Positions 1,907 through 40,962 of a stretch of DNA of 40,962 bases are shown here, one piece after another. A program made the translations under genes and the position numbers. Each line of letters begins with the position of its first letter. Positions within the stretch are counted from its first letter, which is position 1. This DNA comes from a virus. The notes beneath the pieces are model-generated. The model was not told the origin of the DNA. It made no database searches and saw only the letters and a program-made list of their open reading frames with translations. Location: IMG/VR virus record IMGVR_UViG_3300017782_000052, one strand, 5' to 3'.

Positions 1907-1925
1907 CTAATGATGTAACTTTAGG
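1907..1925 (-). promoter_or_regulatory. Copy A of the conserved motif; candidate phage-RNAP promoter upstream of the tail-fibre gene.
   Basis: Minus strand reads CCTAAAGTTACATCATTAG. It lies directly after the stop of 1926-5297 and 21 nt before the fibre ATG. The core CTAAAGTTACA is shared with four other sites. Confidence 0.45.
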
Positions 1926-4900
1926 TTAGTCTGCCATTGAAGCCGTAGCGTTAAGTAGCTGCCTTGCACCATATAAAGAACTGAATGGTAAAATCCTAAG
2001 TAAACTTCTAAGTTCATTCTCAGTTAGATCATTACCAGCTATCATCTCTCCTAAGTCTTTTGCACCAGCAGCACCACTAACTATCCAAGAGGCAACAGCA
2101 GGTGTTAGGCCTTTTGTTTGTCCATCTAGGATGCCTGTTGATACTTGGTACAAATAAGCAAACAAAGATGCTGAACCTATTTGACCTAAAGAACCAAGCC
2201 AAAAACGGTCAGCTTGCATTTGTCTTTCTACGTAAGAATCTCTGTCACTACGTCCTAAAGAATTTAGATGTGTACGAGCAGTATACATAAGCATGCCTAA
2301 ACCAGCAGCAGATGTTAAGATTTTAGCTACATCTACAGCATCACCATTAGCTGCTCTAACAGCCAAGCGTCCTGCTTGTTGCTCTAAAGAGGCCATAGGA
2401 AAAGACAAGAACTGAAAAGCTGATTTACCTACTTCACTACGAAGCAAGTAATTTACAGAACCGTTGTTCACTTCTTGTACAGACTGAGTAGCTTCACGTC
2501 TGGCAGCACGTAAGAAAACATTACGTGCGTCTATGTTTTTCCACTTGTGTAAGTTTAGTACATCAAGCACACCTGTCTGTGGATTTATTTCAGCCCACTT
2601 CTGTATCTCTTTATTTATAGCTACACCCATAGCATCATCAATACCCATCTGTTCACGTTTAATACGTGAGAAGGGTAGCTTACCGCCAACAGCTTTTGCT
2701 TGCCATTCTGTAGCAAAGTTGTACATAGACAACCTACGTAGCATATCAGTCACGCCTTGTAGACCAGAAGCTACTGATACAAAGATACGAGCCTTGCCTA
2801 ACCATTCGTCAAGTTGTGTTACATCACCCTGAATAGTACCATACTCTTCAAAGATAGAACCCTCAGTTCTACTACGCACTGATGTAACTTTGGTCATAAG
2901 ACCGTCACCACCAGTACCAGTAAATACCATCATCTCATGGGCAGCTTTGTTTTTTAACTGCCCTGTACGTGCATCAATAACAAGTTTATTTAATTGTGGT
3001 ACTGTTTTCAGTAGAGTTCCCATAGATGTTTCAAATAAGACATTGGTAAGTTCCATTACTGCTGACATACCAGCCATGCCCATGTTAGCAGCAAAGCTAA
3101 CTTCTCTAAACCTATTAAACCCTCTACGAGTACCGTATGACCAGTCTTCTCTGTAAGGTAGTCTACCTGTTACGCTATCATAAAGAAACTCAGCAGCCCT
3201 AATTTCTTTTGCTACCTTATCAGGATCAGCACCACCTTTTACCTTGCCAATAATGGTTTGAAAACCCGAACCTGCTTTGTTTGTATCAATACCATTTGCA
3301 GCTAGTGATGTTGCTCCTGCTGTCTGAAACAAGTACTTTTCGTACAGAGTTCTACCGTTTGTTTCTAACAAGTCTACAAAACGAAGAGTAAAGATATTGC
3401 CAGCATCGTCCCTAGCTAAAACTTCAGCAGTCTCATCAAGTTGCATACGATGTCTAGCACGTGGATTACCTTTAACTTTCTTTGGTGTTTGTGCAGCAAC
3501 CTCTAGAATAATATCTATTTGTTCTTTCGTAAATTCACCTGAATCTTTTAGTGCTAGACGTGCTTCATCTTCACTAGCTAACCCATCTCCAAGTTTACGT
3601 ATGTTGTTATTCTTTGGGTTGAGTAGAGTACGCATGTAACCACGTGCAAGCTGTGTAATAGCAGCTTTGACAGCTTTAGGGCCAGCAGGTTTACCTTTAG
3701 CTTTAAGTGCTTTAGCCATATTTAGTTCGATGTCTGGCTGACCACCACGAATAGCTGCCTCACCTAAATCTAGGAAGGCATCGTTAATATCTCCGTCAGC
3801 CTTATCGCTTAACTTAGCGGCTTGGCCTTGATTACCAAAGCGTAGTATTGAAACTTGTTGCCTATTGACAATACGTGGTAAATAGTTTTGTATCTTACCA
3901 AACATCTCAGGAACAAAACCAGCAGCATTAGCTTCGATTGCTGTCTTGAACATTCTGTCCATGTTAGCACTATACATGTTAGCTATCTCTCTAACCTCAG
4001 GTATTACCCTAGCGTTAGGATTACGCATAGCCTCACCAACCATAAACTCTACGTCTGTTTCTTTTACATTAAGCTTTTTAGTTGCAGTCTTATACAATTT
4101 AGATAGTTTTGTGGCATCTTTAAGTATAGTTGAGGATACTAACGTATCTCTTAGTTCCAAGGCATTACTGCCCACTTCACGTCCTGATTTGTTACCTAGA
4201 CTATTTAAGGCTAGGCCATCACCCAGCCACCGCAGTACAGGGTCTTCTGAGTTTTTTAACTGAACAATAGTAGAAATGACACCACGTGCGCTGGCAAACT
4301 CACCCCTTTGCTTAGATGTCTCTGCTAACTCTTCTGGTGTCATATCCGTAAAGTCTTTACGTGTAAGACCAGCTATAAGTGAATCACTATCAAAGTCAGC
4401 ATCAGTGCGTGGGGTGTCTAGGTTAAACTCATCAGCCTCATCTACCATTCTGGTAAATTGTTCTGCAATCACATCATCTGAAAACTGTTTTACAAGTGCT
4501 TCTTGCTCTACGTTAAGAGGCTTGCCTTCTGCTTTCAACTGTTGAATTTCATGGAAGGCTTTACGCTTTTGCATATACCTACCATACTTGGTAAATCCAC
4601 CAGTTATGCCACCACCTAAAGCGGTAGCTAACATAAGCTGATTACCAGTAATATCATGTACAGTCTGTGCGCGAAGAAGTTCTAGACCACCCATTGTGGC
4701 AGCACCTGCACCTGTAGCAAATAAGGCTGGGGCTTTCTGAAACTTTCTAAATAACTGTGTACCTCTAACACCTAGTAGAGTAGCAGTACCAGTGAAAGGA
4801 GCAAGCGGTGGGGTTGCAGCAGATACAGCAGCAGCCATACCTAAGGCAGCAGCAGTATCTACAGGGTCAAGAAAAGCTGATGTCATGTAAGCTGCAAAGC

Positions 4901-5297
4901 CTGACATACCTGCATTAGCCATATCACTATATAACTTTTGACTTAGCTTAATCTCATGTGCAACTTTCTTAGCACCACCTGTACCACGCTCTTCACCAGC
5001 CTTGAGAACTTTCTGTACTAGCATCTCATCATCAATGCCATCTAGAAGCTCAGTAGCCACCTCTTGAGTAAATGGTCTTTTATCATCAAAGTCAGGAGCA
5101 AAAAATCTGTAGGCAGATGCAGCAGTACCCTGAGTATACTGTGATTGTCCCACTAGCTGAAAGAAATTCTTACTATCTTTTTCTGCTTCTGCCTGTGCTT
5201 GCCGTACTTGGTATTTGTTAAATTGAGGAGTTTCAGGTGAAGTAGGTAAGGGAGAAAACCCTAACTCCATCTGAATAGCCTCTAGTGATTTAGCCAT
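1926..5297 (-). CDS. Internal virion (ejection) protein, T7 gp16-like, without an N-terminal transglycosylase domain.
   Basis: 1123 aa at the gp16 position. The C-terminal region (SAFQFLSFPMASLEQQ...AAGLGMLMYTARTHLNSLGRSDRDSYVERQ) parallels the T7 gp16 C-terminus (MVMQFKSFTIKSLNS...GLAGGFYAMAAHVKAYALPKEKRKEYLER). Confidence 0.7.
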   Translation of the reverse strand: MAKSLEAIQMELGFSPLPTSPETPQFNKYQVRQAQAEAEKDSKNFFQLVGQSQYTQGTAASAYRFFAPDFDDKRPFTQEVATELLDGIDDEMLVQKVLKAGEERGTGGAKKVAHEIKLSQKLYSDMANAGMSGFAAYMTSAFLDPVDTAAALGMAAAVSAATPPLAPFTGTATLLGVRGTQLFRKFQKAPALFATGAGAATMGGLELLRAQTVHDITGNQLMLATALGGGITGGFTKYGRYMQKRKAFHEIQQLKAEGKPLNVEQEALVKQFSDDVIAEQFTRMVDEADEFNLDTPRTDADFDSDSLIAGLTRKDFTDMTPEELAETSKQRGEFASARGVISTIVQLKNSEDPVLRWLGDGLALNSLGNKSGREVGSNALELRDTLVSSTILKDATKLSKLYKTATKKLNVKETDVEFMVGEAMRNPNARVIPEVREIANMYSANMDRMFKTAIEANAAGFVPEMFGKIQNYLPRIVNRQQVSILRFGNQGQAAKLSDKADGDINDAFLDLGEAAIRGGQPDIELNMAKALKAKGKPAGPKAVKAAITQLARGYMRTLLNPKNNNIRKLGDGLASEDEARLALKDSGEFTKEQIDIILEVAAQTPKKVKGNPRARHRMQLDETAEVLARDDAGNIFTLRFVDLLETNGRTLYEKYLFQTAGATSLAANGIDTNKAGSGFQTIIGKVKGGADPDKVAKEIRAAEFLYDSVTGRLPYREDWSYGTRRGFNRFREVSFAANMGMAGMSAVMELTNVLFETSMGTLLKTVPQLNKLVIDARTGQLKNKAAHEMMVFTGTGGDGLMTKVTSVRSRTEGSIFEEYGTIQGDVTQLDEWLGKARIFVSVASGLQGVTDMLRRLSMYNFATEWQAKAVGGKLPFSRIKREQMGIDDAMGVAINKEIQKWAEINPQTGVLDVLNLHKWKNIDARNVFLRAARREATQSVQEVNNGSVNYLLRSEVGKSAFQFLSFPMASLEQQAGRLAVRAANGDAVDVAKILTSAAGLGMLMYTARTHLNSLGRSDRDSYVERQMQADRFWLGSLGQIGSASLFAYLYQVSTGILDGQTKGLTPAVASWIVSGAAGAKDLGEMIAGNDLTENELRSLLRILPFSSLYGARQLLNATASMAD

Positions 5298-17696: not shown

Positions 17697-17715
17697 CTAA
17701 TGTTGTAACTTTAGA
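17697..17715 (-). promoter_or_regulatory. Copy B of the conserved motif; candidate phage promoter ahead of the structural genes.
   Basis: Minus strand reads TCTAAAGTTACAACATTAG. It overlaps the RNR stop codon (the TAA inside the motif) and lies 16 nt before the next ATG. Confidence 0.45.
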
Positions 17716-19609
17716 TGTCTACCAACTCACATGCACCTGCTGTACAGGCTAATGTTTGGCTACCAGAAGTAGTATCTTCCTTCTCATACAGGGATAAAGC
17801 AGTCCAGTCAATAGCTTCAGGCATCTGCTTTTTAAATTCCTCGTACTGTTCCTTGTCAATCTCTTGATAGGGAGCTTGAGCATACGTGTGGTCACTGTGT
17901 GGTAAGAACGATATACCTGAACATATGTCAAAGTTCTCGTAGACCCATGCACCTACTGCCATCCACTCTGCATCCTTAACTGTAATAGTTACTGATGGTT
18001 TGTGTTCACACCAGTTGAGTGCATAGTTCTTCCACAGTTCTAGCTGTTGTAGTGCAGTCATATCGTTACGAGTAACAGCACCAGATGGTGACTTAGTAGG
18101 AAAGCTAAACACTGTAGTAGAATCAGGCTTCATCACACACGGTTCAGCAGGGATACCACTGTCCTTCATAAACTGTGTTAGTGGGTCTTTGTTATCGCCA
18201 CGTACAGTGCGGATGTAGTACTCACTGTGTCGTGCATGAATACCTGAAGCTGTATCCGTTAACTGTGATACAGTACCTGATGGTTTGACACAAGTAATAG
18301 CAGCAGAAGTAGGTACACCTAGTTTGTCAGCATAGATACGGTTGACATCAACGGCATGTTCTTTTAATTTTTTCAACCATATTGAACTGTCGGTAGTCTT
18401 AGATAGTAAGTAGTTATCCATGATACCTGTTAGTGATACACCAAGCAGACGCTCTTCTTCTGTATTCTTCTGCCATATCTTACGTAAGTAAGGCATCTTA
18501 GTAAAGGTAGACTGTGCTGTACCAAGGATAGTAGCTATTCGTACCTTACGGCGTAGGCTTTCTAGGTCATCACCGTGCCTAACAACCACCTCTGTTAGAT
18601 TACAGAATTGATAAGGGCGAAGGATAATCTCAGAACAAGGGTTAGTTCCCCACTCATGTCCTGTCTCTCTACGTCCATTCATCTTAACGTGCTTGTCTGC
18701 TGCTACACGTGAGAAGATACCACGTTCACCAGACTTAGATTCTACAAGAGACAACCACTCACGCATGAACCCTTCCATATCAGGCTTATCTGTGTAGGCT
18801 ACAGAGTTATTAGCCAACGCACGTTGACCCTCGTTCTCCCACCATTGACCTGACTTAGCGTGTGCCATGCGTCCGTCACTAAGGTTAGACAGGCTAATCA
18901 TAGCTGAACGGCGAACACCACCCACTACCACAACCTCACCAATCTTACACATAATGTCGTGACACTCAATGCTGGTCAGCTTACGTCCTGCTGCTGCCTT
19001 AAACTTATCTACCACAAAGTTAAACAAGTCATTCAGTGGTTCAGGGCCACTAGCCCTACCACCAAAAGTCTTGAGCCTAGCACCTGCTGGCCTGATCTTA
19101 GACAAGTCCCACTTAGGAATGTCACCTGAGTACAGGTGTGATAGCAGCTTATGCAATGCCCTAGCCCAGCCTTCCTTGCTGTCCTTGACTGAAATGATGT
19201 CATCACTTATTTCTAGTGTATCAGGTACATCAGGAAGCTTGGCAATAGACTGACGTTCTACACTAAAGCCAACACCAGTACCACACAGTAGAATAAACAT
19301 AGCCTCATCAAAGGCACGTATGTGGTCTACTGGCAGGTAGCTACAGTTGTAGATGCAGGTGTTGTCACGGTCTGCTGCTACCCCTGCTGTCATCAAGGCT
19401 CTCATGCTGGGCATAACTTCAAGGTTGAGAATAGCTTCCTCAATTTCTTTTAGGTCTTTAGCAGGTAGGCCAGTGGTAGCAATGTAATTGATGTATCGTT
19501 GTACTGTCTCAGGCCAAGTCTCTCGCCTGTTCTCATCCTCTAACCATCGTGCGTACCTGCTAGTAGCAATAAATGTTTGGTAGTCTGTTGGTAAGTAGTT
19601 GCTACTCAT
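17711..19609 (-). CDS. Ribonucleotide reductase catalytic chain; probably class II-like (NrdJ-type), since I saw no beta-subunit gene in the genome.
   Basis: 632 aa. It contains TNPCSEIIL (the NPC.E catalytic-Cys motif of class I/II RNRs), GTGVGFS, and a C-terminal cysteine pair, CTAGAC. Confidence 0.75.
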   Translation of the reverse strand: MSSNYLPTDYQTFIATSRYARWLEDENRRETWPETVQRYINYIATTGLPAKDLKEIEEAILNLEVMPSMRALMTAGVAADRDNTCIYNCSYLPVDHIRAFDEAMFILLCGTGVGFSVERQSIAKLPDVPDTLEISDDIISVKDSKEGWARALHKLLSHLYSGDIPKWDLSKIRPAGARLKTFGGRASGPEPLNDLFNFVVDKFKAAAGRKLTSIECHDIMCKIGEVVVVGGVRRSAMISLSNLSDGRMAHAKSGQWWENEGQRALANNSVAYTDKPDMEGFMREWLSLVESKSGERGIFSRVAADKHVKMNGRRETGHEWGTNPCSEIILRPYQFCNLTEVVVRHGDDLESLRRKVRIATILGTAQSTFTKMPYLRKIWQKNTEEERLLGVSLTGIMDNYLLSKTTDSSIWLKKLKEHAVDVNRIYADKLGVPTSAAITCVKPSGTVSQLTDTASGIHARHSEYYIRTVRGDNKDPLTQFMKDSGIPAEPCVMKPDSTTVFSFPTKSPSGAVTRNDMTALQQLELWKNYALNWCEHKPSVTITVKDAEWMAVGAWVYENFDICSGISFLPHSDHTYAQAPYQEIDKEQYEEFKKQMPEAIDWTALSLYEKEDTTSGSQTLACTAGACELVDI

Positions 19610-26157: not shown

Positions 26158-27807
26158 TCACGCAAAGAAATACTCTGATTGTAGTATCTCACGCAAATTT
26201 AATTCACCCCTAGCTGGTGGCACTGGTACATCTTCAGTACCTAGTACCTTGATAGCATGTTGCCTCAACTCTGTCAACACATCATGCTGCTCATACATAT
26301 TAACAAACTCCTCACGTAATACCTCAGACAACAATGGCATCATACTACTGTGTGTACCGTAGCTGTCGTGTACCATAGCAAAGTCTTGGATGCCTAGCTT
26401 GCTTGCCTTGTTGATAGTCTTGGTCATAGCTGACGCATCCAGACTGTGGATAAAGTTAGGGCTGCTGCCCAACCCTGTCCTCTGCCTGTTAACAGAGTTT
26501 GGTTTGTCTCTAGGAAAGGACAACGACACGATGCCCCCATTGATATGTGTCTTGATTCTTTTCTGCTGCACCTCACTGTATTGTTGTAACACTAACCATC
26601 CTGTAGGTGTGACCCACTCCATGTGCCTGTTCATCTGAGCATACACATCAGCCACATCTTTAATGTAATCCATCACCTTACGTGCTGATACAATTACCTC
26701 ACTGATTGAATCCCATACGTGACCAGCTAGGTAATTGGATGCCTCAAACAAATCATCACCGAATGGGTTAGGCTCACCACCATCTATCTTCTCACGCATA
26801 GCTTCCTCTATGTAACCACGACAGGCGTGGCGTGTACCACTGTAGGGTACGATCATTACTGGACGCTTGGCAAGCTTCCTGTCTACGCCAAAGGCCAAGC
26901 ACTTACGTGCTAGTTCTGTGTCGTCCTGCTCCACACGTGCGATAGTCTTGTCTGCCACCTGTGTGTAGATGTCTTGAGGTATACCTGATGGTACTAAGTT
27001 AGTAGCAAGGCCACCCTGCCTGTCCCGCAGTATGGCAGAGAGGTGCTGTAGCCCATTGCAGCTACCATCTGCTGACACAGGTAGGCGTGTCTCATACCCC
27101 CAGCTATGCTTCATCAGGCCTGACATCTCGTAGCACCATGCCAAGAACTGAAATGGTTTGTCTGCCTCAAGCCAGACCAAGCACTCGTATGGGTTGGACA
27201 CAATGCGGTGCGCCCACATCTCTGCGTACTCCCATGCCCATGTCTCACGCTGGTCTAGTGTAACCTTGTCGTTACCGTACAGGTTGGCACCATGAATACA
27301 CAACCATCGTGCATCGTCCCAGCTATTGATAGCCATAGGGTAGCCAAACTCTAGCAGTGCCTTACTCCAATCGGCAGACTGAGGTGAGAGGAACGTGCTG
27401 CTTGCATACTTGCGAGAACGGAAGTCGTTCTGCCACACATAATAGAACTTGTCATACTTAGAAAACTGTTCTGCTATCTGTAGAGTACGCTCTACTTGTA
27501 TGCGCTTGCTCACGCTGCGGTTGTTGAGAGAGTAGATGTGATTACGCTTGCGTGACCATGCACGAAAGTCATCCCTCTCAGCCTCAGTCAACTGCTTGGG
27601 GTCACGGTCAAAGGGATACTCAGGTAATGGTATATCCTCTTTGGCTGGTAGCTTACCCCACTCATGTCCGTTGTCCCATATGGTACGCATCACCTCAAGC
27701 AATGGCTTGTTGATACGCCACTCTGTCCGTTGCAGTGTGTTAAGACAGGCATACTCTTGGCTCAAGTCTTCCTGCTTTAGTCTGCGTAAGTGTGTCTTCA
27801 AACTCAT
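26158..27807 (-). CDS. Single-subunit (T7-like) RNA polymerase, C-terminal part: thumb, palm and fingers (549 aa).
   Basis: NTLQRTEWRINKPLLEV (T7 NIAQNTAWKINKKVLAV), DGSCNGLQHLSAILRD (T7 DGSCSGIQHFSAMLRD), RPVMIVPYSGT, PNFIHSLDAS, VHDSYGT (T7 IHDSFGT), and the C-terminus LQSEYFFA (T7 LESDFAFA). Confidence 0.92.
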   Translation of the reverse strand: MSLKTHLRRLKQEDLSQEYACLNTLQRTEWRINKPLLEVMRTIWDNGHEWGKLPAKEDIPLPEYPFDRDPKQLTEAERDDFRAWSRKRNHIYSLNNRSVSKRIQVERTLQIAEQFSKYDKFYYVWQNDFRSRKYASSTFLSPQSADWSKALLEFGYPMAINSWDDARWLCIHGANLYGNDKVTLDQRETWAWEYAEMWAHRIVSNPYECLVWLEADKPFQFLAWCYEMSGLMKHSWGYETRLPVSADGSCNGLQHLSAILRDRQGGLATNLVPSGIPQDIYTQVADKTIARVEQDDTELARKCLAFGVDRKLAKRPVMIVPYSGTRHACRGYIEEAMREKIDGGEPNPFGDDLFEASNYLAGHVWDSISEVIVSARKVMDYIKDVADVYAQMNRHMEWVTPTGWLVLQQYSEVQQKRIKTHINGGIVSLSFPRDKPNSVNRQRTGLGSSPNFIHSLDASAMTKTINKASKLGIQDFAMVHDSYGTHSSMMPLLSEVLREEFVNMYEQHDVLTELRQHAIKVLGTEDVPVPPARGELNLREILQSEYFFA

Positions 27808-28601
27808 TTGCGCCTCACTATAGGTAGTTCATCTATATCGTGACCATGAAACCCACCACCCTGTACATCTGTCCAGTCTTTGGGTGGTACTATGCAGGGT
27901 AGATAGCGTGGCCTTGATACTTCCATGTATTCGTTGAACGCTTGGATAAACTCTAGCGTACCATCAGTAGGTTTAACGTAGGTAGCCCTGCGTTTACGTT
28001 CAGTCTGCTGTGTGTCCAGCTTAACAATACCTGTGTGCTGGATGATGATGTCCACCATCTTAAATCCTACATGCACACGCTCTGACTTTAGCCATGCTGA
28101 TTCTTCGTACCCATCCTTGTTCATCTTGTGTGTCAGACCGTAGCGTCTAGCACCATAGGCTTTCTTCATAGCCTCTTTGATTGTGTTCTTTGCTACACCA
28201 CCTTCTGCGTGTACCCATCTGTCTAGTCTATCCTGCATCTCAATGTTAGTACCAATGGTACGTGCCACATGCAGCAGTGTGTTCTTCCTGCTGATGCTGT
28301 CAACCAACGACACCACTGAGAGGTAGGCTACCTGCTCTGCATCCATATCCCTGACACGCTTCCATGCTATGTCTCTTGATGGATTGCTAGGGTTGGCTAG
28401 GTACTGTTCTATACCCTGTGCTACCTGCCCCACAACTGTACCCACAATGGCTCTACCATGTGGCAGGTGTGATTCCCTACCCTTTTCAATGGCCTTGTCT
28501 CTGGCCTTCCTGAAGCGATTAACACCACCTGTCAGCATGTCTGCCTCAAGTTCAAGCTGGTGTTCAAATAGGTCTTGGTTAGTTTCTAAAGTTACAACCA
28601 T
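27804..28601 (-). CDS. Single-subunit RNA polymerase, N-terminal domain, encoded as a separate ORF (265 aa).
   Basis: GVNRFRK (T7 GEARFRK), ERVHVGFKMVDIIIQHTGIV (T7 DSIHVGVRCIEMLIESTGMV), and YLPCIVPPKDWTDVQGGGFH (T7 FQPCVVPPKPWTGITGGGYW). It ends ...ELPIVRRK with a TGA that overlaps the ATG of 26158-27807. Confidence 0.88.
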   Translation of the reverse strand: MVVTLETNQDLFEHQLELEADMLTGGVNRFRKARDKAIEKGRESHLPHGRAIVGTVVGQVAQGIEQYLANPSNPSRDIAWKRVRDMDAEQVAYLSVVSLVDSISRKNTLLHVARTIGTNIEMQDRLDRWVHAEGGVAKNTIKEAMKKAYGARRYGLTHKMNKDGYEESAWLKSERVHVGFKMVDIIIQHTGIVKLDTQQTERKRRATYVKPTDGTLEFIQAFNEYMEVSRPRYLPCIVPPKDWTDVQGGGFHGHDIDELPIVRRK

Positions 28602-28633
28602 GATAAGACCCCCTTTACTATATCTTTAAGATA
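28583..28633 (+). repeat. Inverted-repeat arm E, which pairs with 32309-32360.
   Basis: Plus strand reads tttctaaagttacaaccATgaTaagaccccc-tttactatatctttaagata. The reverse complement of 32309-32360 reads tttctaaagttacaaccTAgaCaagacccccctttactatatctttaagata. That is 48 matches, 3 mismatches and 1 gap. Confidence 0.9.
28585..28602 (+). promoter_or_regulatory. Copy E of the conserved motif, in the OPPOSITE orientation (plus strand) and overlapping RNAP codons 1-6. It is a candidate antisense or leftward promoter.
   Basis: Plus strand reads TCTAAAGTTACAACCATG. If it functions like copies A-D, it would fire into the early genes in antisense. Confidence 0.3.
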
Positions 28634-28784
28634 CGGTCAGCATCCCTGCTATACCAATGGTGAATACACCTGTTAACATAACTACAAATTGTATACCTGT
28701 TACTGATTCATAGTCACCTATCATACCTACTACTGCTACTGCTATCATAGCTACAATCCATACTATAAGTAGTACATCCATCAT
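28626..28784 (-). CDS. Small two-transmembrane-segment protein (52 aa), below the ORF-track cutoff.
   Basis: My translation is MMDVLLIVWIVAMIAVAVVGMIGDYESVTGIQFVVMLTGVFTIGIAGMLTVS. Its ATG overlaps the upstream TGA. Confidence 0.5.
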   Translation of the reverse strand: MMDVLLIVWIVAMIAVAVVGMIGDYESVTGIQFVVMLTGVFTIGIAGMLTVS

Positions 28785-28960
28785 GCTTCTCCATAATTAA
28801 TCAGTAACCATGTCTCCAATGGTGACTGTTGGACTGCTGTTGGTTCTTCTGCCCACTGCATTTGACACTCAGGGCAGTAGTATTCAATCATCCCATCCAC
28901 TGCGTACAAGGCTTCAGCCTCACCACTACAGTGCATACAGTTCTTATACCCCATGCTCAT
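28781..28960 (-). CDS. Small zinc-ribbon protein (59 aa), below the ORF-track cutoff.
   Basis: My translation is MSMGYKNCMHCSGEAEALYAVDGMIEYYCPECQMQWAEEPTAVQQSPLETWLLINYGEA. It has a C-x2-C...C-x2-C arrangement and an ATGA overlap with the upstream ORF. Confidence 0.55.
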   Translation of the reverse strand: MSMGYKNCMHCSGEAEALYAVDGMIEYYCPECQMQWAEEPTAVQQSPLETWLLINYGEA

Positions 28961-29190
28961 TGCTCTGTCCCCTCATTGGTACGCAACAATTCCCCAGCTA
29001 CATACCCCATCTTAAACTTGATATGATACTGAGCCTGTTTGTTCTTATCATACTGGTTGTCATAAGTCAAGCCATGATAGCCATTGTGATAGCCCATAAT
29101 GTAGGCATCATCATACTTGTTACGTCCCTGATTCATTGTCTGTCTCCGCCTAGTCTGCATCACTGCTCTGTGTACTGGTGTTACCTTCAT
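28957..29190 (-). CDS. Early hypothetical protein (77 aa), Tyr/Gly-rich.
   Basis: It is coupled to the upstream ORF by a TAATG overlap. It contains YIMGYHNGYHGLTYDNQYDKN...KMGYVAG. Confidence 0.6.
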   Translation of the reverse strand: MKVTPVHRAVMQTRRRQTMNQGRNKYDDAYIMGYHNGYHGLTYDNQYDKNKQAQYHIKFKMGYVAGELLRTNEGTEQ

Positions 29191-29390
29191 TAGAACCTTG
29201 GCGTAAACTCTACGCCATCCCCATGCTGTTGCTTTAGGGTGCGTAGCTGCTGCCGCATAGCTGTTACATCCTCACCATCCCACTCTGCATCCTGTATCTT
29301 GATGGATAGTGCTGTCAATTTTTTGACAGTATATTCTAGCCTGTCGTCAGAGTATACGTCCTTGCAGTATGTATCAATATACATGCTCAT
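29190..29390 (-). CDS. Early hypothetical protein (66 aa).
   Basis: ATG with GGGAG upstream, within an unbroken chain of overlapping minus-strand ORFs. Confidence 0.6.
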   Translation of the reverse strand: MSMYIDTYCKDVYSDDRLEYTVKKLTALSIKIQDAEWDGEDVTAMRQQLRTLKQQHGDGVEFTPRF

Positions 29391-29592
29391 CTTCTACTCC
29401 CTGTGCATACAGAAATTCCCCTGTGTCACGAATAGTATTACAATTTATACCGATGGTTGCATTATGCCAAGACTTTAACTTGTGTAACACATCAAGTGCT
29501 TGTTCTTTTGTGAGCCAGTCACACTCTATCATTACATCCTCAACAGACCACACGATTGCAATCTCATCGTCTTTTAGTTCAAGCTTTGTCAT
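29374..29592 (-). CDS. Early hypothetical protein (72 aa from the ATG; the ORF track begins at a TTG at 29598).
   Basis: ATG at 29592, preceded by GAGGAG. Confidence 0.6.
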   Translation of the reverse strand: MTKLELKDDEIAIVWSVEDVMIECDWLTKEQALDVLHKLKSWHNATIGINCNTIRDTGEFLYAQGVEDEHVY

Positions 29593-29887
29593 TGTCAATC
29601 TCCTCTACGTCATTGTCTATGATAAGACTTAGCATAGGTTCGTTGTCGTTGTCAATGTCTAACGACACCACGTACTGGTTTGTCCAGATAGACAAGTCAC
29701 CACGGTACGCCTCGTATAGTAGGTCATACATTTCCTGTGCCTCGTATACTTCGATGGCCTCAACAATCACATAACCCTTACGCTGCTTGTCGTATTCCAT
29801 TAGGGTCATGGTGTGTGCGCCTTCACCGTCCTGTGTTATGTCCAGCCTGTAGCTGTCGTCTAAGTGTAGCTGTAATGTTCTCATCAT
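29579..29887 (-). CDS. Strongly acidic early protein (102 aa from the ATG at 29887).
   Basis: AGGAG lies 8 nt upstream, and the ATG overlaps the upstream TGA as ATGA. I count about 24 D/E against about 7 K/R. The C-terminus is DIDNDNEPMLSLIIDNDVEEIDNDKA. Confidence 0.65.
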   Translation of the reverse strand: MMRTLQLHLDDSYRLDITQDGEGAHTMTLMEYDKQRKGYVIVEAIEVYEAQEMYDLLYEAYRGDLSIWTNQYVVSLDIDNDNEPMLSLIIDNDVEEIDNDKA

Positions 29888-30108
29888 TTTACAAACTCCT
29901 CGCTTGGTATCTTGTCCCACTCACTGCGTCTGATCTTCCACTTGTCTCGCTGTATGGGTGTGCAAAACCTCACCCACTTCCTGCCTACTACTACCCACAC
30001 TAAACGTGTGCCGCATACAGGCCAGCGTGTGTCGTATAGGTCACACCTAAACAGCTTGGCATTAGCCCATGTTTTTTCTGGTGGTTTTTCTATGCAATGT
30101 CCAGTCAT
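29884..30108 (-). CDS. Early hypothetical protein (74 aa), Trp/Arg/Cys-rich.
   Basis: It has an ATGA overlap with the upstream ORF. The sequence includes CIEK..., RCDLYDTRWPVCGTRLVWVVVGRKWVRFC. Confidence 0.6.
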   Translation of the reverse strand: MTGHCIEKPPEKTWANAKLFRCDLYDTRWPVCGTRLVWVVVGRKWVRFCTPIQRDKWKIRRSEWDKIPSEEFVK

Positions 30109-30326
30109 TTATATACCCCTTCCATCATGTCCATGCCTACAATCAGGCCATCAAGATAGGTTAACATCTCGCGTGGTGCTAGTCTATGCTGTATGACAGT
30201 GCTGCCCTCATTACAAGTTAGCTGCCAGCCACCATAGTGTGGTGCGTTGTTCAGTGCATAGTTTACACTTAGTCTGCGATTGATGCGTGATAGTCTGTTT
30301 TCTAACATACGCTTTGTGGTTCTCAT
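30105..30326 (-). CDS. Early hypothetical protein (73 aa).
   Basis: ATG with AAGGA/TAGGA upstream. I recognised no motif. Confidence 0.6.
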   Translation of the reverse strand: MRTTKRMLENRLSRINRRLSVNYALNNAPHYGGWQLTCNEGSTVIQHRLAPREMLTYLDGLIVGMDMMEGVYK

Positions 30327-30330
30327 AATC

Positions 30331-30441
30331 CTAATCCTTATGCGCTTGGTTAATCATGTCAGCATATGCCAACCCTGCTAGTCCTAGTGCTATGCCTATA
30401 AGCATTACCACGATTACTAATGCTAAGTCAATGATAAACAT
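30331..30441 (-). CDS. Very small single-transmembrane-segment ORF (36 aa), below the ORF-track cutoff.
   Basis: My translation is MFIIDLALVIVVMLIGIALGLAGLAYADMINQAHKD. It fills the gap between two early ORFs. Confidence 0.4.
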   Translation of the reverse strand: MFIIDLALVIVVMLIGIALGLAGLAYADMINQAHKD

Positions 30442-30450
30442 TCCTGTCCC

Positions 30451-31035
30451 CTATGTAATGTTGTGTATTCTACGCCATGCTACCCATGTGATAGCTTGCA
30501 TCTCATAAGCTTTGATACCACACTGCTTTGCCGCATGTCTATATAAATCCTGCAACATGGCATATTCTTTTTTGCCTATGTTAGTCTTGTCATCTGTCAA
30601 GCCTACTCGCTCACCATACGCAATGTTTCTGGCATGTCCGTCTATGGTGCATGTGTCCTCGCCCATGATGTTCTCATAAAAGCATACTATCTTTTGCCCA
30701 TTGAGTATAGCCTTGGTCTCTGAATAGTCTGGCATGTCTTGCAGTATGCGCCACGCCTTGGCTCGCATGGTGTGGTATGTGCTAACCTTTACCGATTCGA
30801 TATGGTCACCACGCATGAACGCACCGATCAAGTCATCTGCATTGGTCACGTTTCTGTGCCACTTGTTGTTGGGTGATAGTGCCGCCACAACACCCACTGC
30901 AATGTGCAACGATATGTCGTGTTTGTCTGCTATCTTTTGGCACTCGCACTTGGCTACATGATACCATGTCATGCCGTGCTTGACCTCTTCTGGATTGGCA
31001 AGTTTATAGATTGCCAGTATGTTTGCTACAGTCAT
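30451..31035 (-). CDS. Early protein (194 aa), function unknown.
   Basis: ATG with GGGAG upstream. The sequence looks helical (e.g. ...AITWVAWRRIHNIT at the C-terminus). I cannot name the family. Confidence 0.7.
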   Translation of the reverse strand: MTVANILAIYKLANPEEVKHGMTWYHVAKCECQKIADKHDISLHIAVGVVAALSPNNKWHRNVTNADDLIGAFMRGDHIESVKVSTYHTMRAKAWRILQDMPDYSETKAILNGQKIVCFYENIMGEDTCTIDGHARNIAYGERVGLTDDKTNIGKKEYAMLQDLYRHAAKQCGIKAYEMQAITWVAWRRIHNIT

Positions 31036-31046
31036 TGGTACTACTC

Positions 31047-31063
31047 CCTAGCTATTACAAGGT
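31047..31063. repeat. 17-bp perfect inverted repeat, arm 1 (partner 31334-31350).
   Basis: Plus strand reads cctagctattacaaggt, the exact reverse complement of 31334-31350 (accttgtaatagctagg). Confidence 0.95.
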
Positions 31064-31096
31064 ACAACAATGACTAGCACTGTTGTCCCCTATATG

Positions 31097-31297
31097 TCAA
31101 GTGCGTGTAATGTCTGCAACACCACCGAAACCACGGTTAGCCAATGCTGGCACATGCAAGTACCGACTAACTTTGCCTGTATGCAGTCCCATAAACGTGC
31201 TGCCACTGCTAACACCGAAACGATACTTGTTAACACGTGGACGCTTGCCTACTACTGCCACAGTCTTACCGAACATTTTGATAGTTTTGGTTTTCAT
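31097..31297 (-). CDS. First early ORF (66 aa), basic, hypothetical.
   Basis: ATG with GAGAGAGGA upstream. The product is MKTKTIKMFGKTVAVVGKRPRVNKYRFGV.... It is bracketed by the 17-bp inverted repeat. Confidence 0.6.
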   Translation of the reverse strand: MKTKTIKMFGKTVAVVGKRPRVNKYRFGVSSGSTFMGLHTGKVSRYLHVPALANRGFGGVADITRT

Positions 31298-31314
31298 AGT
31301 CTTAGTCCTCTCTC

Positions 31315-31343
31315 AATATAGGCGCACTATTGCACCTTGTAAT
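31315..31343 (-). promoter_or_regulatory. Candidate sigma70-type host promoter for the early genes.
   Basis: Minus strand has ATTACA (-35, 4/6), a 17-nt spacer and TATATT (-10, 5/6), about 18 nt before the first early ATG. The host is unknown, so this call is weak. Confidence 0.3.
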
Positions 31344-31350
31344 AGCTAGG
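31334..31350. repeat. 17-bp perfect inverted repeat, arm 2.
   Basis: See 31047-31063. Confidence 0.95.
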
Positions 31351-31417
31351 CGTTTTTACGGTTGCTATCCCGCCCACGCCTAGCTTGGCCTAGCATCCTC
31401 GCAGCACATAGCCTAGC
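31345..31417. repeat. Cluster of four GCCTAGC heptamers (one inverted, three direct).
   Basis: gctaggc at 31345-31351 (inverted); gcctagc at 31378-31384, 31388-31394 and 31411-31417. The first two direct copies are 10 bp apart. Confidence 0.7.
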
Positions 31418-31756
31418 GGTACTGTCTATGGCTTGGGCTTCCCTTGCATATGGCAGGACTGCAAACCTTATCCTTTATAGTGCTATCCATTAGGCTAGTA
31501 CACTGCAAGCTTTAGGTGCTTCGTAACCTTTAGTCTCTAAACGGTATTCTCTTTTTATTCGGTAGTCAATCCATATTCGTATTCGGTATGCATATTCTTT
31601 TTTAGTCTGTGACCTAGCAAGGTTGAGCGTATCGCTTATGCGCTTTCTTTCGGTCTATCAAAAGTTTCTTGCTATTGCTCTTGCGAGTAAGTCGGTACGT
31701 TTTCTTTCGATGCTTAAACCTAGCATGGAATAATTGAGAAAGTAAACAACGGATAT

Positions 31757-31808
31757 TTGACACTTGTAGCGTCAGAATATTGACAGGTGTCAGGTTTTTG
31801 ACAGGTGT
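31757..31808. repeat. TTGACA(G/C)(G/T)TGT repeat cluster, including the palindrome TGACAggTGTCA.
   Basis: ttgacacttgt at 31757-31767; ttgacaggtgt at 31780-31790 and 31798-31808. TGACAGGTGTCA at 31781-31792 is a 5+2+5 palindrome. aggtgtcagg recurs at about 31994-32003. Confidence 0.7.
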
Positions 31809-31837
31809 TTATATATACTTAAAGTGTCCAGTAGTTT

Positions 31838-31888
31838 GTTCTGGTTATGTTCTAGGTCTTTAAGGTTTGTTAAGAACAGAACAAGAAC
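31838..31888. repeat. Imperfect 16-bp inverted repeat (GTTCT-rich).
   Basis: gttctggttatgttct (31838-31853) against agaacagaacaagaac (31873-31888). 14 of 16 positions are complementary, with a 19-nt spacer. Confidence 0.5.
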
Positions 31889-31920
31889 AGATAGAGAGAG
31901 ACACACAAAAGATTCTAAAA

Positions 31921-31981
31921 GACCCCAAAGAATCTTAGCCATGCCTAACATTTAAAGGCACCCTGAAGAATCTTTGGGGTC
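31921..31981. terminator. Long hairpin (61 nt); candidate bidirectional terminator or structural element in the non-coding region.
   Basis: gaccccaaagaatctt (31921-31936) pairs with aagaatctttggggtc (31966-31981) at 15 of 16 positions. There is an inner 5-bp stem, tgcct/aggca. A U4 run follows immediately on the minus strand, and a UUUU run follows 7 nt downstream on the plus strand. Confidence 0.45.
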
Positions 31982-32024
31982 GCATAGATTTTAAGGTGTC
32001 AGGGGGTCACGCGCATCTACTAAT

Positions 32025-32054
32025 ATTATATACCCCCTCAGATTTTTTCGTCAT
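32025..32054 (-). promoter_or_regulatory. Candidate sigma70-type promoter.
   Basis: Minus strand has ATGACG (-35, 4/6), an 18-nt spacer and TATAAT (perfect -10). However, the 31921-31981 hairpin lies only about 40 nt downstream. Confidence 0.25.
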
Positions 32055-32056
32055 TT

Positions 32057-32245
32057 TTAGGCCTGTTTAGCACCCTTAATGGTACATACAAAGTCTACAG
32101 TCTTCCAATGACCATCTGGTGGATACTCCTCATGTACTATCTTCATCTCAATACAAGCAGGTTCAGTATCAAACCACTGTACATCTTGTGTCAAACAATT
32201 GACAGGAGAACATACAGTAAGCATTAGTGTCCATATTACTTCCAT
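32057..32245 (-). CDS. Small Cys-containing hypothetical protein (62 aa) at the gp19.5 position, after the terminase gene.
   Basis: ATG with AAGG upstream and a hydrophobic N-terminus (MEVIWTLMLTVCSPVNC). It is the last ORF before the non-coding region. Confidence 0.55.
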   Translation of the reverse strand: MEVIWTLMLTVCSPVNCLTQDVQWFDTEPACIEMKIVHEEYPPDGHWKTVDFVCTIKGAKQA

Positions 32246-32299
32246 AATCTTGCCTTATTCTCATAGCCGAAGCATAAGCAGCATACCTAAAGACCCTTA

Positions 32300-32338
32300 A
32301 AGACCCCCTATCTTAAAGATATAGTAAAGGGGGGTCTT
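32300..32338 (-). terminator. Hairpin immediately downstream of terL and motif copy D; candidate terminator or attenuator.
   Basis: aagaccccc (32300-32308) pairs with gggggtctt (32330-32338), giving a 9-bp GC-rich stem and a 21-nt loop. On the minus strand it is followed by UAAGGGUCUUUAGG, which is not a clean U-run. Confidence 0.4.
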
Positions 32339-32360
32339 GTCTAGGTTGTAACTTTAGAAA
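32309..32360 (-). repeat. Inverted-repeat arm D (pairs with 28583-28633).
   Basis: See 28583-28633. This arm covers the last two terL codons plus the stop, motif copy D, and most of the downstream hairpin. Confidence 0.9.
32341..32358 (-). promoter_or_regulatory. Copy D of the conserved motif; candidate phage promoter after terL (phiOR-like position).
   Basis: Minus strand reads TCTAAAGTTACAACCTAG. The terL stop codon is the TAA inside the motif. Confidence 0.45.
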
Positions 32361-34039
32361 GCTATCCATCCATCCTGCTTGTTACTAATACCAGAAACAT
32401 TCATGTTAGACATAAACTTTTCTAGTTCACTATCCAGTAGTTCTTCTTTTCTTGTTCGTATTTCTGTATCTGCATCAGCAGCCATTTGCTCTGTCCAGTA
32501 CTGCACTGCCATAGCAAGTACGTCAAGTCTATCGTCATGTGCTAATGCTCCACGTTGTTTAGTTATCCTAGTCATCTGATAGGTAAGCATGTACTTGATA
32601 CCCTTTTCAGGGGGCATGTTCTGTACACTGTCATAGTCCTTTTGTATGACCTTAGGGTCTACTACAAGTCTATGCTGGTTCATTACAGGCTCTAACGTAT
32701 CAATGATACGCATTTCCTTTTGTGTATTATGCCTAACCTCTTCCAGCGTAACTGGATAAGTCTTCAACATGTACGGCTTGAGCAACTCAGTAAACATACC
32801 GTCACCAAAGTTACTCTCTATGAGTACCGTGTTTACCTGATGTATCTTGGCGAGGTCTGTAAGATGCTGTAGTGTAGTGTCAGAGTAACCACCCTCAACA
32901 CCACCACAGTCCACCACGTACAGATAACCATTCAACATCTTCACAATCGAGTAGGCAGTCTCGTCACTACCTCTACCTGATGGGTCAATAGCCATCACTG
33001 AGCCTGTGTATTTAGCCCTACCTACTGTATCTTCTGGCGCATAGTACTTATCGCCACTTAAACCCACGTTAGGAATCTCTGACATGGGCTTCATTATTCC
33101 GTACACCATCTTTTCTGGTGCTGTATCCTTGTCACAGGAGTATATAATAAGGTCACTCAGTTTAAGCGGATATTTGTTTGCGTCACTGAGACTAGTATCC
33201 AACATAAATTGCAGAGCAAAACCGCTTCTACCATAACTAAGTTCTCTTTCTAATAAGTCTTCATCATCAAATCGTTTAGCGTCCGTAGGATGACCGTACA
33301 CGGCCTCTAACTTTTCCTGTAGGGTTTCATACAAGAAGGGTGCTAGACGCCCCCCATAGGCCTTCTCTGCGCGTTCTAGGCTAGGATAACGAGCAGGCCA
33401 TACTCTCATGGCGTATCCACGCCCCAACAGTACGTTATACAGGCTCATTTCATTCTGAGGTGTACCAAGATAAATAATCTTACCCTCAGGCTTCAAGACA
33501 GCGTCAAATTCCTTAACAGTCTCCCCTAGCTTCTCACGCATCATGTGGGTCATGGAGTTGTTAGGGACTTCTACGTCATCAGCAATAATAATGTCAGCAC
33601 GTGAACCTGTAAGCTGCCCTGTGACCCCTACAGACTTCACTGAGGGGCTACCAGATGCTTTAGTTGGTGCTACATCAAAGGCTATCTTAGACCATCTCTG
33701 CCCCTCTTTAGCCACCAAATGCTGGCAAATAGGCAGTTCCATGATAATACGCTGCGTAAACGTAGAGAAGTCGTCAGCACGTGCCTTAGATGCAGACACC
33801 ACCATAAACTTTAACTGTGGGTCTAGCAGTAACTGGTGTACCACGTAGGCAGCAGTAATGTAAGACTTACCTACACCACGGAAAGCTTCGATAATACAAC
33901 GCTTGGGACTATGTTGCAGATAGTTCGCAATATCATATTGTACTGGCGTAGGTTCTGGTAGACCCAGATGTTGCCATACTAAGTACGTAAAGTTCCTAAA
34001 GTCTCTCAGAGCCTCAGGAACGGCGTTTGGTTGTTGCAT
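32354..34039 (-). CDS. terL: Terminase large subunit, T7 gp19-like.
   Basis: EAFRGVGKSYITAAYVVHQLLLDPQLKFMVVSASKARAD, SPSVKSVGVTGQLTGSRADIIIADDVEVPNNS, YLGTPQ, IDPSGRGSDETAY, ESNFGDGMF and GALAHDDRLD closely parallel T7 gp19. Confidence 0.95.
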   Translation of the reverse strand: MQQPNAVPEALRDFRNFTYLVWQHLGLPEPTPVQYDIANYLQHSPKRCIIEAFRGVGKSYITAAYVVHQLLLDPQLKFMVVSASKARADDFSTFTQRIIMELPICQHLVAKEGQRWSKIAFDVAPTKASGSPSVKSVGVTGQLTGSRADIIIADDVEVPNNSMTHMMREKLGETVKEFDAVLKPEGKIIYLGTPQNEMSLYNVLLGRGYAMRVWPARYPSLERAEKAYGGRLAPFLYETLQEKLEAVYGHPTDAKRFDDEDLLERELSYGRSGFALQFMLDTSLSDANKYPLKLSDLIIYSCDKDTAPEKMVYGIMKPMSEIPNVGLSGDKYYAPEDTVGRAKYTGSVMAIDPSGRGSDETAYSIVKMLNGYLYVVDCGGVEGGYSDTTLQHLTDLAKIHQVNTVLIESNFGDGMFTELLKPYMLKTYPVTLEEVRHNTQKEMRIIDTLEPVMNQHRLVVDPKVIQKDYDSVQNMPPEKGIKYMLTYQMTRITKQRGALAHDDRLDVLAMAVQYWTEQMAADADTEIRTRKEELLDSELEKFMSNMNVSGISNKQDGWIAF

Positions 34040-40889: not shown

Positions 40890-40962
40890 GCTGGTCTGCT
40901 GTGCCAGTGAGTTATAGACAACGTAAATGTCATCTGTGGCTGCTACGCTATATCCTACTAGA
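40890..40962. repeat. Terminal overlap, copy 2 (identical to 1-73).
   Basis: Exact 73/73 match to the window start. Confidence 0.95.

Follow-up and report, generated by a model that had tools for sequence, protein, structure and literature searches.

Facing copies of a putative phage RNA polymerase promoter, one of them antisense within the polymerase's own first codons, in a conserved inverted repeat of a T7-like podovirus genome

In phage T7, the phage promoters phiOR and phiOL flank the genome ends; phiOR lies downstream of the terminase gene, each of the two is followed by AT-rich sequence, and both are directed rightward. Phages also produce antisense RNAs that cover a ribosome-binding site (RBS) or a neighbouring gene, such as sar of P22 and OOP of lambda, which the host RNA polymerase (RNAP) makes from sigma-70 promoters. 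In Pseudomonas phage LUZ19, a phiKMV-like member of the Autographiviridae, ONT-cappable-seq located an antisense phage-specific promoter, P001, which 15 Phikmvvirus species have in common (PMC10914365). The authors (Putzeys et al. 2024) propose that P001 stops transcription from entering the early genes on a circularised or concatemeric genome (PMC10914365). LUZ100 carries a sense phage promoter ahead of its RNAP gene (PMC10134795). In this study, a long inverted repeat was analysed in the IMG/VR virus record IMGVR_UViG_3300017782_000052, a DNA of 40,962 nucleotides (nt) that is called the window below, at its full length. The repeat links the end of the large terminase gene, terL, with the start of the gene for a phage RNAP. 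The reading preferred here, to which we assign a probability of roughly 55%, is that this RNAP transcribes antisense from the arm at its own start codon, which would provide feedback on RNAP, shut-off of the early genes and insulation, and that the sequence following the promoter is kept alike in the two arms largely by gene conversion.

Positions 28583-28633 (+), TTTCTAAAGTTACAACCATGATAAGACCCCCTTTACTATATCTTTAAGATA, pair with 32360-32309 (-), TTTCTAAAGTTACAACCTAGACAAGACCCCCCTTTACTATATCTTTAAGATA, with 48 matches, 3 mismatches and 1 gap, as a preliminary description of this DNA had reported. That description had exchanged the arm labels; the terL stop is in the 32.3-kb arm and the RNAP start in the 28.6-kb arm. 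The substitutions between the arms are TA/AT and C/T, the single gap is one C of a C-run, and local alignment extends both arms slightly, to the limits given in Table 1. The 23-mer CCCTTTACTATATCTTTAAGATA occurs twice, versus 0 times in 100 shuffles, and the remaining inverted repeats of the window are 21-37 nt long with 70-88% complementarity. The window is a metagenomic assembly whose ends overlap by 73 nt, and an assembly artefact or a chance similarity might be suspected on that ground; the likelihood of such an origin is next to nil, however, given that no shuffle recreated the repeat and that more than 20 independent IMG/VR contigs from different samples show the same arrangement with lineage-specific sequence. 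The assembly chimera that had been considered earlier is thus refuted, as is coincidence. The earlier argument that the identity exceeds chance stands, and shared function is favoured.

The proximal ~18 nt of each arm are the motif TCTAAAGTTACAWC. The 13-mer CTAAAGTTACAWC is found five times in the genome without a mismatch; four of these copies are at gene ends on the coding strand, and the fifth is on the plus strand (28586-28598) within RNAP codons. The coding-strand motifs read TTTCTAAAGTTACAACCTAGAC at the terL stop, TTTCTAAAGTTACATCCTAGCC at the RNAP stop, CATCTAAAGTTACAACATTAGCG at 17.7 kb and AACCTAAAGTTACATCATTAGAT at 1.9 kb, and the one at terL is directed into a 62-amino-acid (aa) open reading frame (ORF), a non-coding region and the early genes. 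The TAA stops of terL (32354-32356) and of a 632-aa ORF at 17711..19609 (17711-17713) are the TAA within the motif TCTAAAGT, so these coding ends overlap the upstream elements of the putative promoter. Roseobacter phage CRP-125, the nearest isolate by terL DNA, has a related motif, TAGGTTGCACCATAG, in five exact copies that are all sense and lie at positions matching those in the window (after terL, after RNAP, before the portal gene); one copy is 53 nt upstream of RNAP. When aligned without gaps to the SP6 promoter, ATTTAGGTGACACTATAG, the window motif matches at 10/18 positions, and this alignment would put +1 at the G of CCTAG. The string TTTACTATA was considered as a multi-copy promoter and rejected; it has just two copies, no excess over chance, and the candidate promoter is the TCTAAAGTTACA part of the arm. 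As to promoter identity alone, the motif is very probably the promoter of the phage's own single-subunit RNAP, since its variation tracks that of the RNAP specificity loop, with the antisense copy changing accordingly.

The preliminary description had placed a promoter element over RNAP codons 1-7, and the antisense motif is indeed the complement of codons 1-6. The predicted antisense promoter spans 28585-28601 from -17 to -1, with +1 at the G at 28602, the base adjoining the RNAP ATG. It is identical to the sense copies over -17 to -5, and its triplet -3 to -1 is CAT, the complement of the RNAP ATG. This triplet is CAA in lineages with a TTG start; elsewhere the ATG sits 1-2 bases further in, and the predicted antisense start across lineages falls 0-2 nt upstream of the RNAP start codon. 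Residues 10-263 of the RNAP query align to T7 RNAP residues 31-298. Residues 1-9 are outside the aligned part and therefore free to encode a DNA signal, which fits an N-terminal tail whose sequence is dictated by DNA function. Together with the copy after the RNAP stop, the gene is flanked by two promoters that are both directed away from it, and this divergent pair (~2.44 kb apart) is found in at least seven further IMG/VR contigs. The two copies in the arms are convergent, with the early genes and the non-coding region between them, and transcription from one would run antisense through every early gene, as had been noted before.

Related loci were gathered from IMG/VR with the RNAP N-terminal ORF and a 194-aa early protein as queries. 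About 24 distinct contigs contain both the terL end and the RNAP start, with RNAP N-terminal identities from 99% to 50%. Nearly every one has, behind the terL stop, a stretch that matches the RNAP start region in reverse complement, over ~20 nt (L026, L058), 45-76 nt, 90 nt (L016 group) or ~120 nt (L047). The comparison suggested in the preliminary description thus finds both arms kept in relatives; the recent duplication that it had offered as an origin does not hold, given that lineages down to ~48-50% RNAP N-terminal identity already have the repeat. Among ~45 related metagenomic lineages, the motif changes in step with the RNAP specificity loop, and the antisense copy is included in this change. 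The lineage variants are AGTTACAAC, AGTTACCCTC, AGTGTACC, AGTACCCC and AGTTCCCC; the copies after RNAP, at terL and in antisense co-change within each lineage, and 4-5 variants are each paired with a distinct specificity loop (for example VSLSFPRDK, ILTLTYLQDK, QLIFNSD and VRLNIVED). As a negative control, a promoter look-alike on the antisense strand of terL, CACCAAAGTTACTCTC, was followed and shows no co-variation with the promoter of each lineage; it lies at ~32790-32830 in the window, encodes conserved ESNFGD and is ~450 nt upstream of the terL stop in all loci. The phage-promoter-like element that had been noticed in the arms is thus confirmed as a multi-copy motif that sits at gene ends and co-varies with the specificity loop.

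The antisense copy was found at the RNAP start in all ingroup lineages examined. This includes L083, where it equals the post-RNAP promoter over 26 nt, though without a canonical start codon at the usual place. At 1213-1262 of L083, the usual RNAP start codon is AAT, and the sole in-frame candidate is a GTG upstream of the G-run, without an obvious Shine-Dalgarno sequence. The antisense copy is absent from the outgroup lineages (44-49% RNAP N-terminal identity), from CRP-125 and from a pelagiphage, and the inverted repeat is absent in CRP-125 and pelagiphage Jormungand. No close isolate was found in INPHARED, where the best RNAP N-terminal identity is ~32%.

An inverted repeat of at least 52 nt around a gene block that differs between lineages (2.9-5.3 kb) is also what a Hin/Gin/Cin-like invertible segment or a mobile element such as an IS, a transposon or a MITE might look like, with the arms as recombination sites or terminal inverted repeats of the 3.7-kb early block. 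However, no lineage has the arms anywhere but at the terL stop and the RNAP start, and the element is therefore immobile. A tblastn search of 11 early proteins against the related loci returned 345/345 matches co-oriented with RNAP and terL and 0 inverted. Pfam and PHROG scans of the early ORFs found no recombinase, invertase or transposase between the arms; DUF7178 was the sole Pfam hit to exceed the curated cut-off, a 59-aa early ORF had three sub-threshold matches, and the PHROG matches were to families of unknown function. Mobility of this block is thus very improbable, and the inversion of the 3.7-kb segment that had been suggested earlier receives no support.

From the repeat and its conservation, the multi-copy motif, the co-variation of this motif with the specificity loop and the antisense position, all of them observed directly, we infer transcription from both copies together with its functional consequences. 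In the preferred reading, the repeat would represent two facing copies of one module, composed of an ~18-bp phage-RNAP promoter and a shared leader of 30-100 nt. The module at the terL stop would fire sense, like T7 phiOR. Accumulated RNAP would initiate at the antisense module and transcribe backwards over its own 5' untranslated region (UTR), its Shine-Dalgarno sequence and all early genes. The antisense RNA would be perfectly complementary to the early mRNAs, and the polymerase making it would meet host-RNAP transcription head-on and would also collide with phage-RNAP read-through from the terL promoter across the concatemer junction. The proposed outcome is negative feedback on RNAP synthesis, silencing of the early genes and an early region that is insulated from late transcription. 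The transcript of the terL promoter would itself begin with an anti-RBS sequence against RNAP, because the RNAP 5'UTR region would be copied into the terL-side leader, and may add to the shut-off. Of the three functions put forward in the preliminary description (early shut-off, replication priming and concatemer processing), shut-off is ranked first.

Several points weigh against this reading. The antisense copy has AT or AA at -2/-1, in place of the TA of the sense copies, because those bases belong to the RNAP start codon, and the antisense promoter may be weak owing to this departure. The start sites at 28602 (+) and 32341 (-) are predicted from sequence only, and the position of the genome ends is presumed. 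The likeness of the terL-side and RNAP-side leaders is not demanded by the shut-off model alone. In addition, other promoters share the core but not the leaders, so that the homogenisation of this pair alone is not fully accounted for by non-selected conversion starting from the promoter core.

The leader common to the two arms is 30-100 nt long among lineages. After +1 it reads GA-N-AAGACCCCC, then T(T/G)T(A/T)AC-TATA, and then lineage-specific sequence. The RNAP-side leader is the complement of the RNAP 5'UTR, with its Shine-Dalgarno GGGGG and an AT-rich upstream stretch, and of the end of the preceding ORF; in the window it includes CCCCC at 28609-28613, the complement of the Shine-Dalgarno sequence, and reaches into the final codons of a 52-aa ORF. 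In many lineages, the terL-side leader makes up the 5' stem strand and the loop of a hairpin that is completed by a 3' strand beyond the repeat. The leader is exclusive to these two promoters, and the P2 leader has an identity of 0.39-0.41 with either arm, which is the random level. For the proximal 40 nt, leader identity is 0.77 within a genome, 0.68 between genomes and 0.38 after shuffling. Part of the similarity thus derives from a consensus common to all lineages. Matching within genomes nevertheless exceeds all 5000 label permutations (672 matched cells vs 546 +/- 19), and close relatives differ in their matched extensions, with 11 specific nt in both arms of the window and ~45 specific nt in both arms of the L016 group.

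The mismatches between the leaders comprise 61 transversions, 37 gap columns and 30 transitions (19 sense-wobble, 11 antisense-wobble). Conservation between lineages is 0.64 for the terL-side leaders vs 0.72 for the RNAP-side leaders. The terL-side arm of L047 carries a decayed inverted copy of ~55 nt of the coding sequence of the upstream ORF, and in L025, L026 and L040 the terL-side C-run has become a G-run, by which the local hairpin is kept and the anti-Shine-Dalgarno pairing is lost. The mismatch spectrum, the decayed copy, the lower terL-side conservation, the C-run flips and the matching within genomes fit a leader identity that would be kept largely by repeated copying from the constrained RNAP side to the free terL side, that is, by gene conversion, followed by drift.

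Complementarity of this kind could also serve RNA pairing. RNAs from the terL-side arm, namely late terL mRNA at its 3' end or a short terL-promoter transcript ending at the hairpin, might anneal to the RNAP translation-initiation region and so prevent RNAP from being made late in infection. They could act in trans, or in cis where read-through transcripts span the concatemer junction. The predicted duplex between leader +1 to +48 and RNAP mRNA -45 to +21 has an energy of -51.3 kcal/mol, compared with -19 +/- 3.5 kcal/mol for shuffled leaders and ~ -16 kcal/mol for the leaders of other promoters. The leader C-run is opposite the Shine-Dalgarno GGGGG in 13/16 lineages, and the terL-side arm mirrors the entire intergenic region upstream of RNAP at any length (24 to ~70 nt). 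The terL-side leader folds into a stem-loop in L020, in L063 and in the window, and in L020 a U-run comes after it; the complementary part of this stem-loop is the 5' stem and loop, as in classical antisense RNAs. The states in L016 (G/G), L012 (G/A) and L098 (A/A) resemble a compensatory change via a sense G-U pair. However, the mismatches listed above, dominated by transversions and gap columns, are unlike those of a selected helix, and the positive control, a repeat around a 66-aa early ORF, has 33 sense-wobble, 4 antisense-wobble and 6 transversion changes. The loss of anti-Shine-Dalgarno pairing in the three G-run lineages also disagrees with this account, as does the repeat of only ~20 nt in L026 and L058, where it consists of the promoter alone. 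A selected long-range RNA helix thus became less likely after the transition asymmetry had been counted twice and checked against the internal control, whose signature the repeat lacks. Overall, control of RNAP synthesis by such pairing is rather unlikely, though a short anti-Shine-Dalgarno seed function may still be compatible with the mismatch data.

The repeat used as the positive control is a second conserved inverted repeat of 21-29 nt, at 31047-31072 and 31325-31350, which brackets the 66-aa early ORF (31097..31297) and shows compensatory changes across 17 distinct versions. This is the signature expected of a long-range sense-RNA stem that would loop out the whole ORF, possibly for RNase III-type processing or as a regulatory structure.

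Another explanation of the facing modules concerns replication or the processing of junctions. Each arm would then be a promoter with an AT-rich, origin-like element, as at T7 phiOR, phiOL and phi1.1A/B, and transcription or transcript-primed DNA synthesis would proceed from both sides into the terminal-repeat region, where it may expose or duplicate the terminal repeat or recruit terminase. The modules face each other across the non-coding region in which the genome ends are expected, the leader past the C-run is strongly AT-rich (TTTACTATATCTTTAAGATA), and the cross-lineage consensus over the proximal 40 nt is followed in both arms. On the other hand, the antisense copy is 2.7-3.5 kb from the presumed left end and at least 2.7 kb from the non-coding region. 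In every lineage the left module coincides with the RNAP start codon, a placement that connects it with RNAP and early expression more readily than with the ends. Two copies of an origin need not be identical in sequence, and the replication promoters of T7 are themselves all co-directional. This explanation is quite unlikely. Two further interpretations of the leader were dropped: a sigma-70 promoter within it, considered from sequence, is not consistently conserved, and neither is a T7-primase site (GGGTC) in the G/C run.

Dunn and Studier (1983) reportedly described T7 promoters with AT-rich regions following them at both genome ends, and packaging of plasmids by T7 is said, after Chung and Hinkle (1990), to require an origin together with the concatemer junction. 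To our knowledge, no settled account exists of how the terminal repeat of T7-like phages is duplicated as their DNA is packaged. There is a slim chance that the facing modules are a concatemer-junction device, which would bring phage RNAP, and DNA synthesis primed by its transcripts, into the terminal-repeat region from either side. Local re-replication or unwinding would then give each daughter genome its own terminal repeat, and because the left module sits over the RNAP start codon, the junction process would be tied to RNAP shut-off. Such a device would offer a testable sequence-level handle on terminal-repeat duplication.

The window is a T7-like podovirus genome of ~40.9 kb that was assembled as a circle, with every gene on the minus strand. 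Bases 1-73 equal 40890-40962 as a 100% identical direct repeat within a gene, which is read as the overlap of a circular-path assembly; the unique genome length is 40,889 bp. Between the arms, the coding order runs from the hairpin through the 62-aa ORF and the 760-nt non-coding region to ~11 early ORFs (Table 1). The genome ends are likely located in the non-coding region 31298-32056. Several contigs begin or stop inside it, which is consistent with ends there but is no proof. The presumed end region also holds an imperfect 34-nt inverted repeat (31903-31999, 74% complementary, 29-nt spacer) that contains AAGACCCCAAAGAATCTT / AAGAATCTTTGGGGTC. The sigma-70-like promoter is a candidate early promoter for the host RNAP, and the string AAAAATGACSAAAAAATCTGAGGGGGTRTATAAT around it is conserved in the distant lineage L047. 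A consensus scan of the region gave no intrinsic terminators, the loop of the terL-side hairpin being too long for that scan, and an Rfam E-value scan of 28000-32800 gave a single meaningless lncRNA match (E = 0.55).

The RNAP is encoded by two ORFs joined by an ATGA stop/start overlap at 27804-27807, with the split point at about T7 RNAP residue 298-300. The split is kept in 9/9 lineages checked, down to 55% identity, with TAAgATG instead of the overlap in L075; the split enzyme is therefore a genuine two-subunit version of the single-subunit RNAP and not a frameshift error. The 194-aa early protein (30451-31035, -) belongs to DUF7178 / phrog_3842, a family without assigned function that occurs in many marine viral contigs, including ones of 54-58 kb, larger than this phage type.

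Table 1. Location of the repeat arms, predicted promoters and neighbouring features in the window.
Feature	Position	Strand	Remarks
terL-end arm	32306..32368	-	last terL codons, TAA stop (32354-32356), promoter, leader
RNAP-start arm	28576..28636	+	plus-strand reading: promoter and leader
RNAP-start arm, minus-strand reading	28576..28636	-	52-aa ORF stop, RNAP 5'UTR, Shine-Dalgarno, ATG, codons ~1-7
Predicted phage-RNAP promoter after terL, TCTAAAGTTACAACCTA	32341..32358	-	-17 to -1, +1 = G at 32341
Predicted antisense phage-RNAP promoter, TCTAAAGTTACAACCAT	28585..28602	+	complement of RNAP codons 1-6
Putative sense promoter copy directly after RNAP stop codon	26138..26155	-	
Putative sense promoter copy	17697..17715	-	overlaps stop of ORF 17711..19609; precedes portal and structural genes
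Putative sense promoter copy after ORF 1926..5297	1907..1925	-	
Shared leader copy 1	28603..28636	+	exact antisense of RNAP 5'UTR
Shared leader copy 2, ACAAGACCCCCCTTTACTATATCTTTAAGATA	32306..32340	-	non-coding
Hairpin AAGACCCCCC-loop-GGGGGTCTT just after terL promoter	32300..32338	-	5' half and loop inside repeat, 3' half outside
Large terminase terL	32354..34039	-	Pfam Terminase-T7_RNaseH-like
RNAP N-terminal ORF, 265 aa	27804..28601	-	Pfam RPOL_N; aligns to T7 RNAP residues 31-298
RNAP C-terminal ORF, 549 aa	26158..27807	-	Pfam RNA_pol; carries specificity loop
Bracketed block	28626..32245	-	62-aa ORF, 760-nt non-coding region 31298-32056, ~11 small early ORFs
Sigma-70-like promoter ATGACG-18-TATAAT	32025..32054	-	directly after 62-aa ORF, downstream of terL arm

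If the preferred reading is true, a large uncultured clade of marine T7-like phages has a negative-feedback circuit inside its polymerase gene. The DNA for the first six RNAP residues would double as an opposite-strand promoter aimed at the RNAP's own ribosome-binding site and at the early genes, a compact case of coding sequence and regulatory signal that co-evolve with the specificity loop of an enzyme. The several natural promoter-RNAP pairs, together with a naturally split RNAP, are potential parts for orthogonal expression. Long inverted repeats of phages may at times be by-products of paired regulatory modules and not recombination sites.

By analogy, the closest precedent appears to be P001 of LUZ19 and its counterparts in other phiKMV-like phages. 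The two cases share a promoter copy for the phage's own RNAP that is located among the early genes, runs against the direction of every gene and is conserved in relatives, and the insulating role suggested here matches the one put forward for P001. The start of P001 was mapped experimentally, whereas that in the window is predicted from sequence; unlike P001, the window promoter is overprinted on RNAP codons 1-6, with a predicted start adjoining the start codon. Its leader recurs at the terL-side promoter with which it forms a pair, and the parts of the P001 report that were consulted mention no inverted-repeat partner (PMC10914365).

The remaining systems each resemble the locus in part. Like T7 phiOR and phiOL, the window has a promoter after the terminase gene, a second one across the genome ends, and AT-rich sequence following; unlike the T7 promoters, both of which point rightward and neither of which lies over a coding start, the window pair converges and shares a leader. 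CRP-125 and LUZ100 likewise have a phage promoter at the RNAP gene, and CRP-125 also has one after terL. Their RNAP-proximal promoter points into RNAP, which allows positive feedback, whereas that of the window points away and predicts negative feedback. As with P22 sar and lambda OOP, a short antisense or divergent transcript, here a predicted one, would be the complement of a regulator's translation-initiation region; in contrast to those systems, the regulated enzyme itself would make the antisense RNA.

In sum, three features of the locus appear to be new: a promoter overprinted on the first codons of a polymerase with its predicted start beside the start codon, the apparent co-evolution of this overprinted antisense promoter with the specificity loop, and its link through a common leader to a terL-side promoter, which produces a long inverted repeat. 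If the prediction holds, the antisense phage promoter is extended from a single mapped precedent, P001 of LUZ19, to another subgroup and another position.

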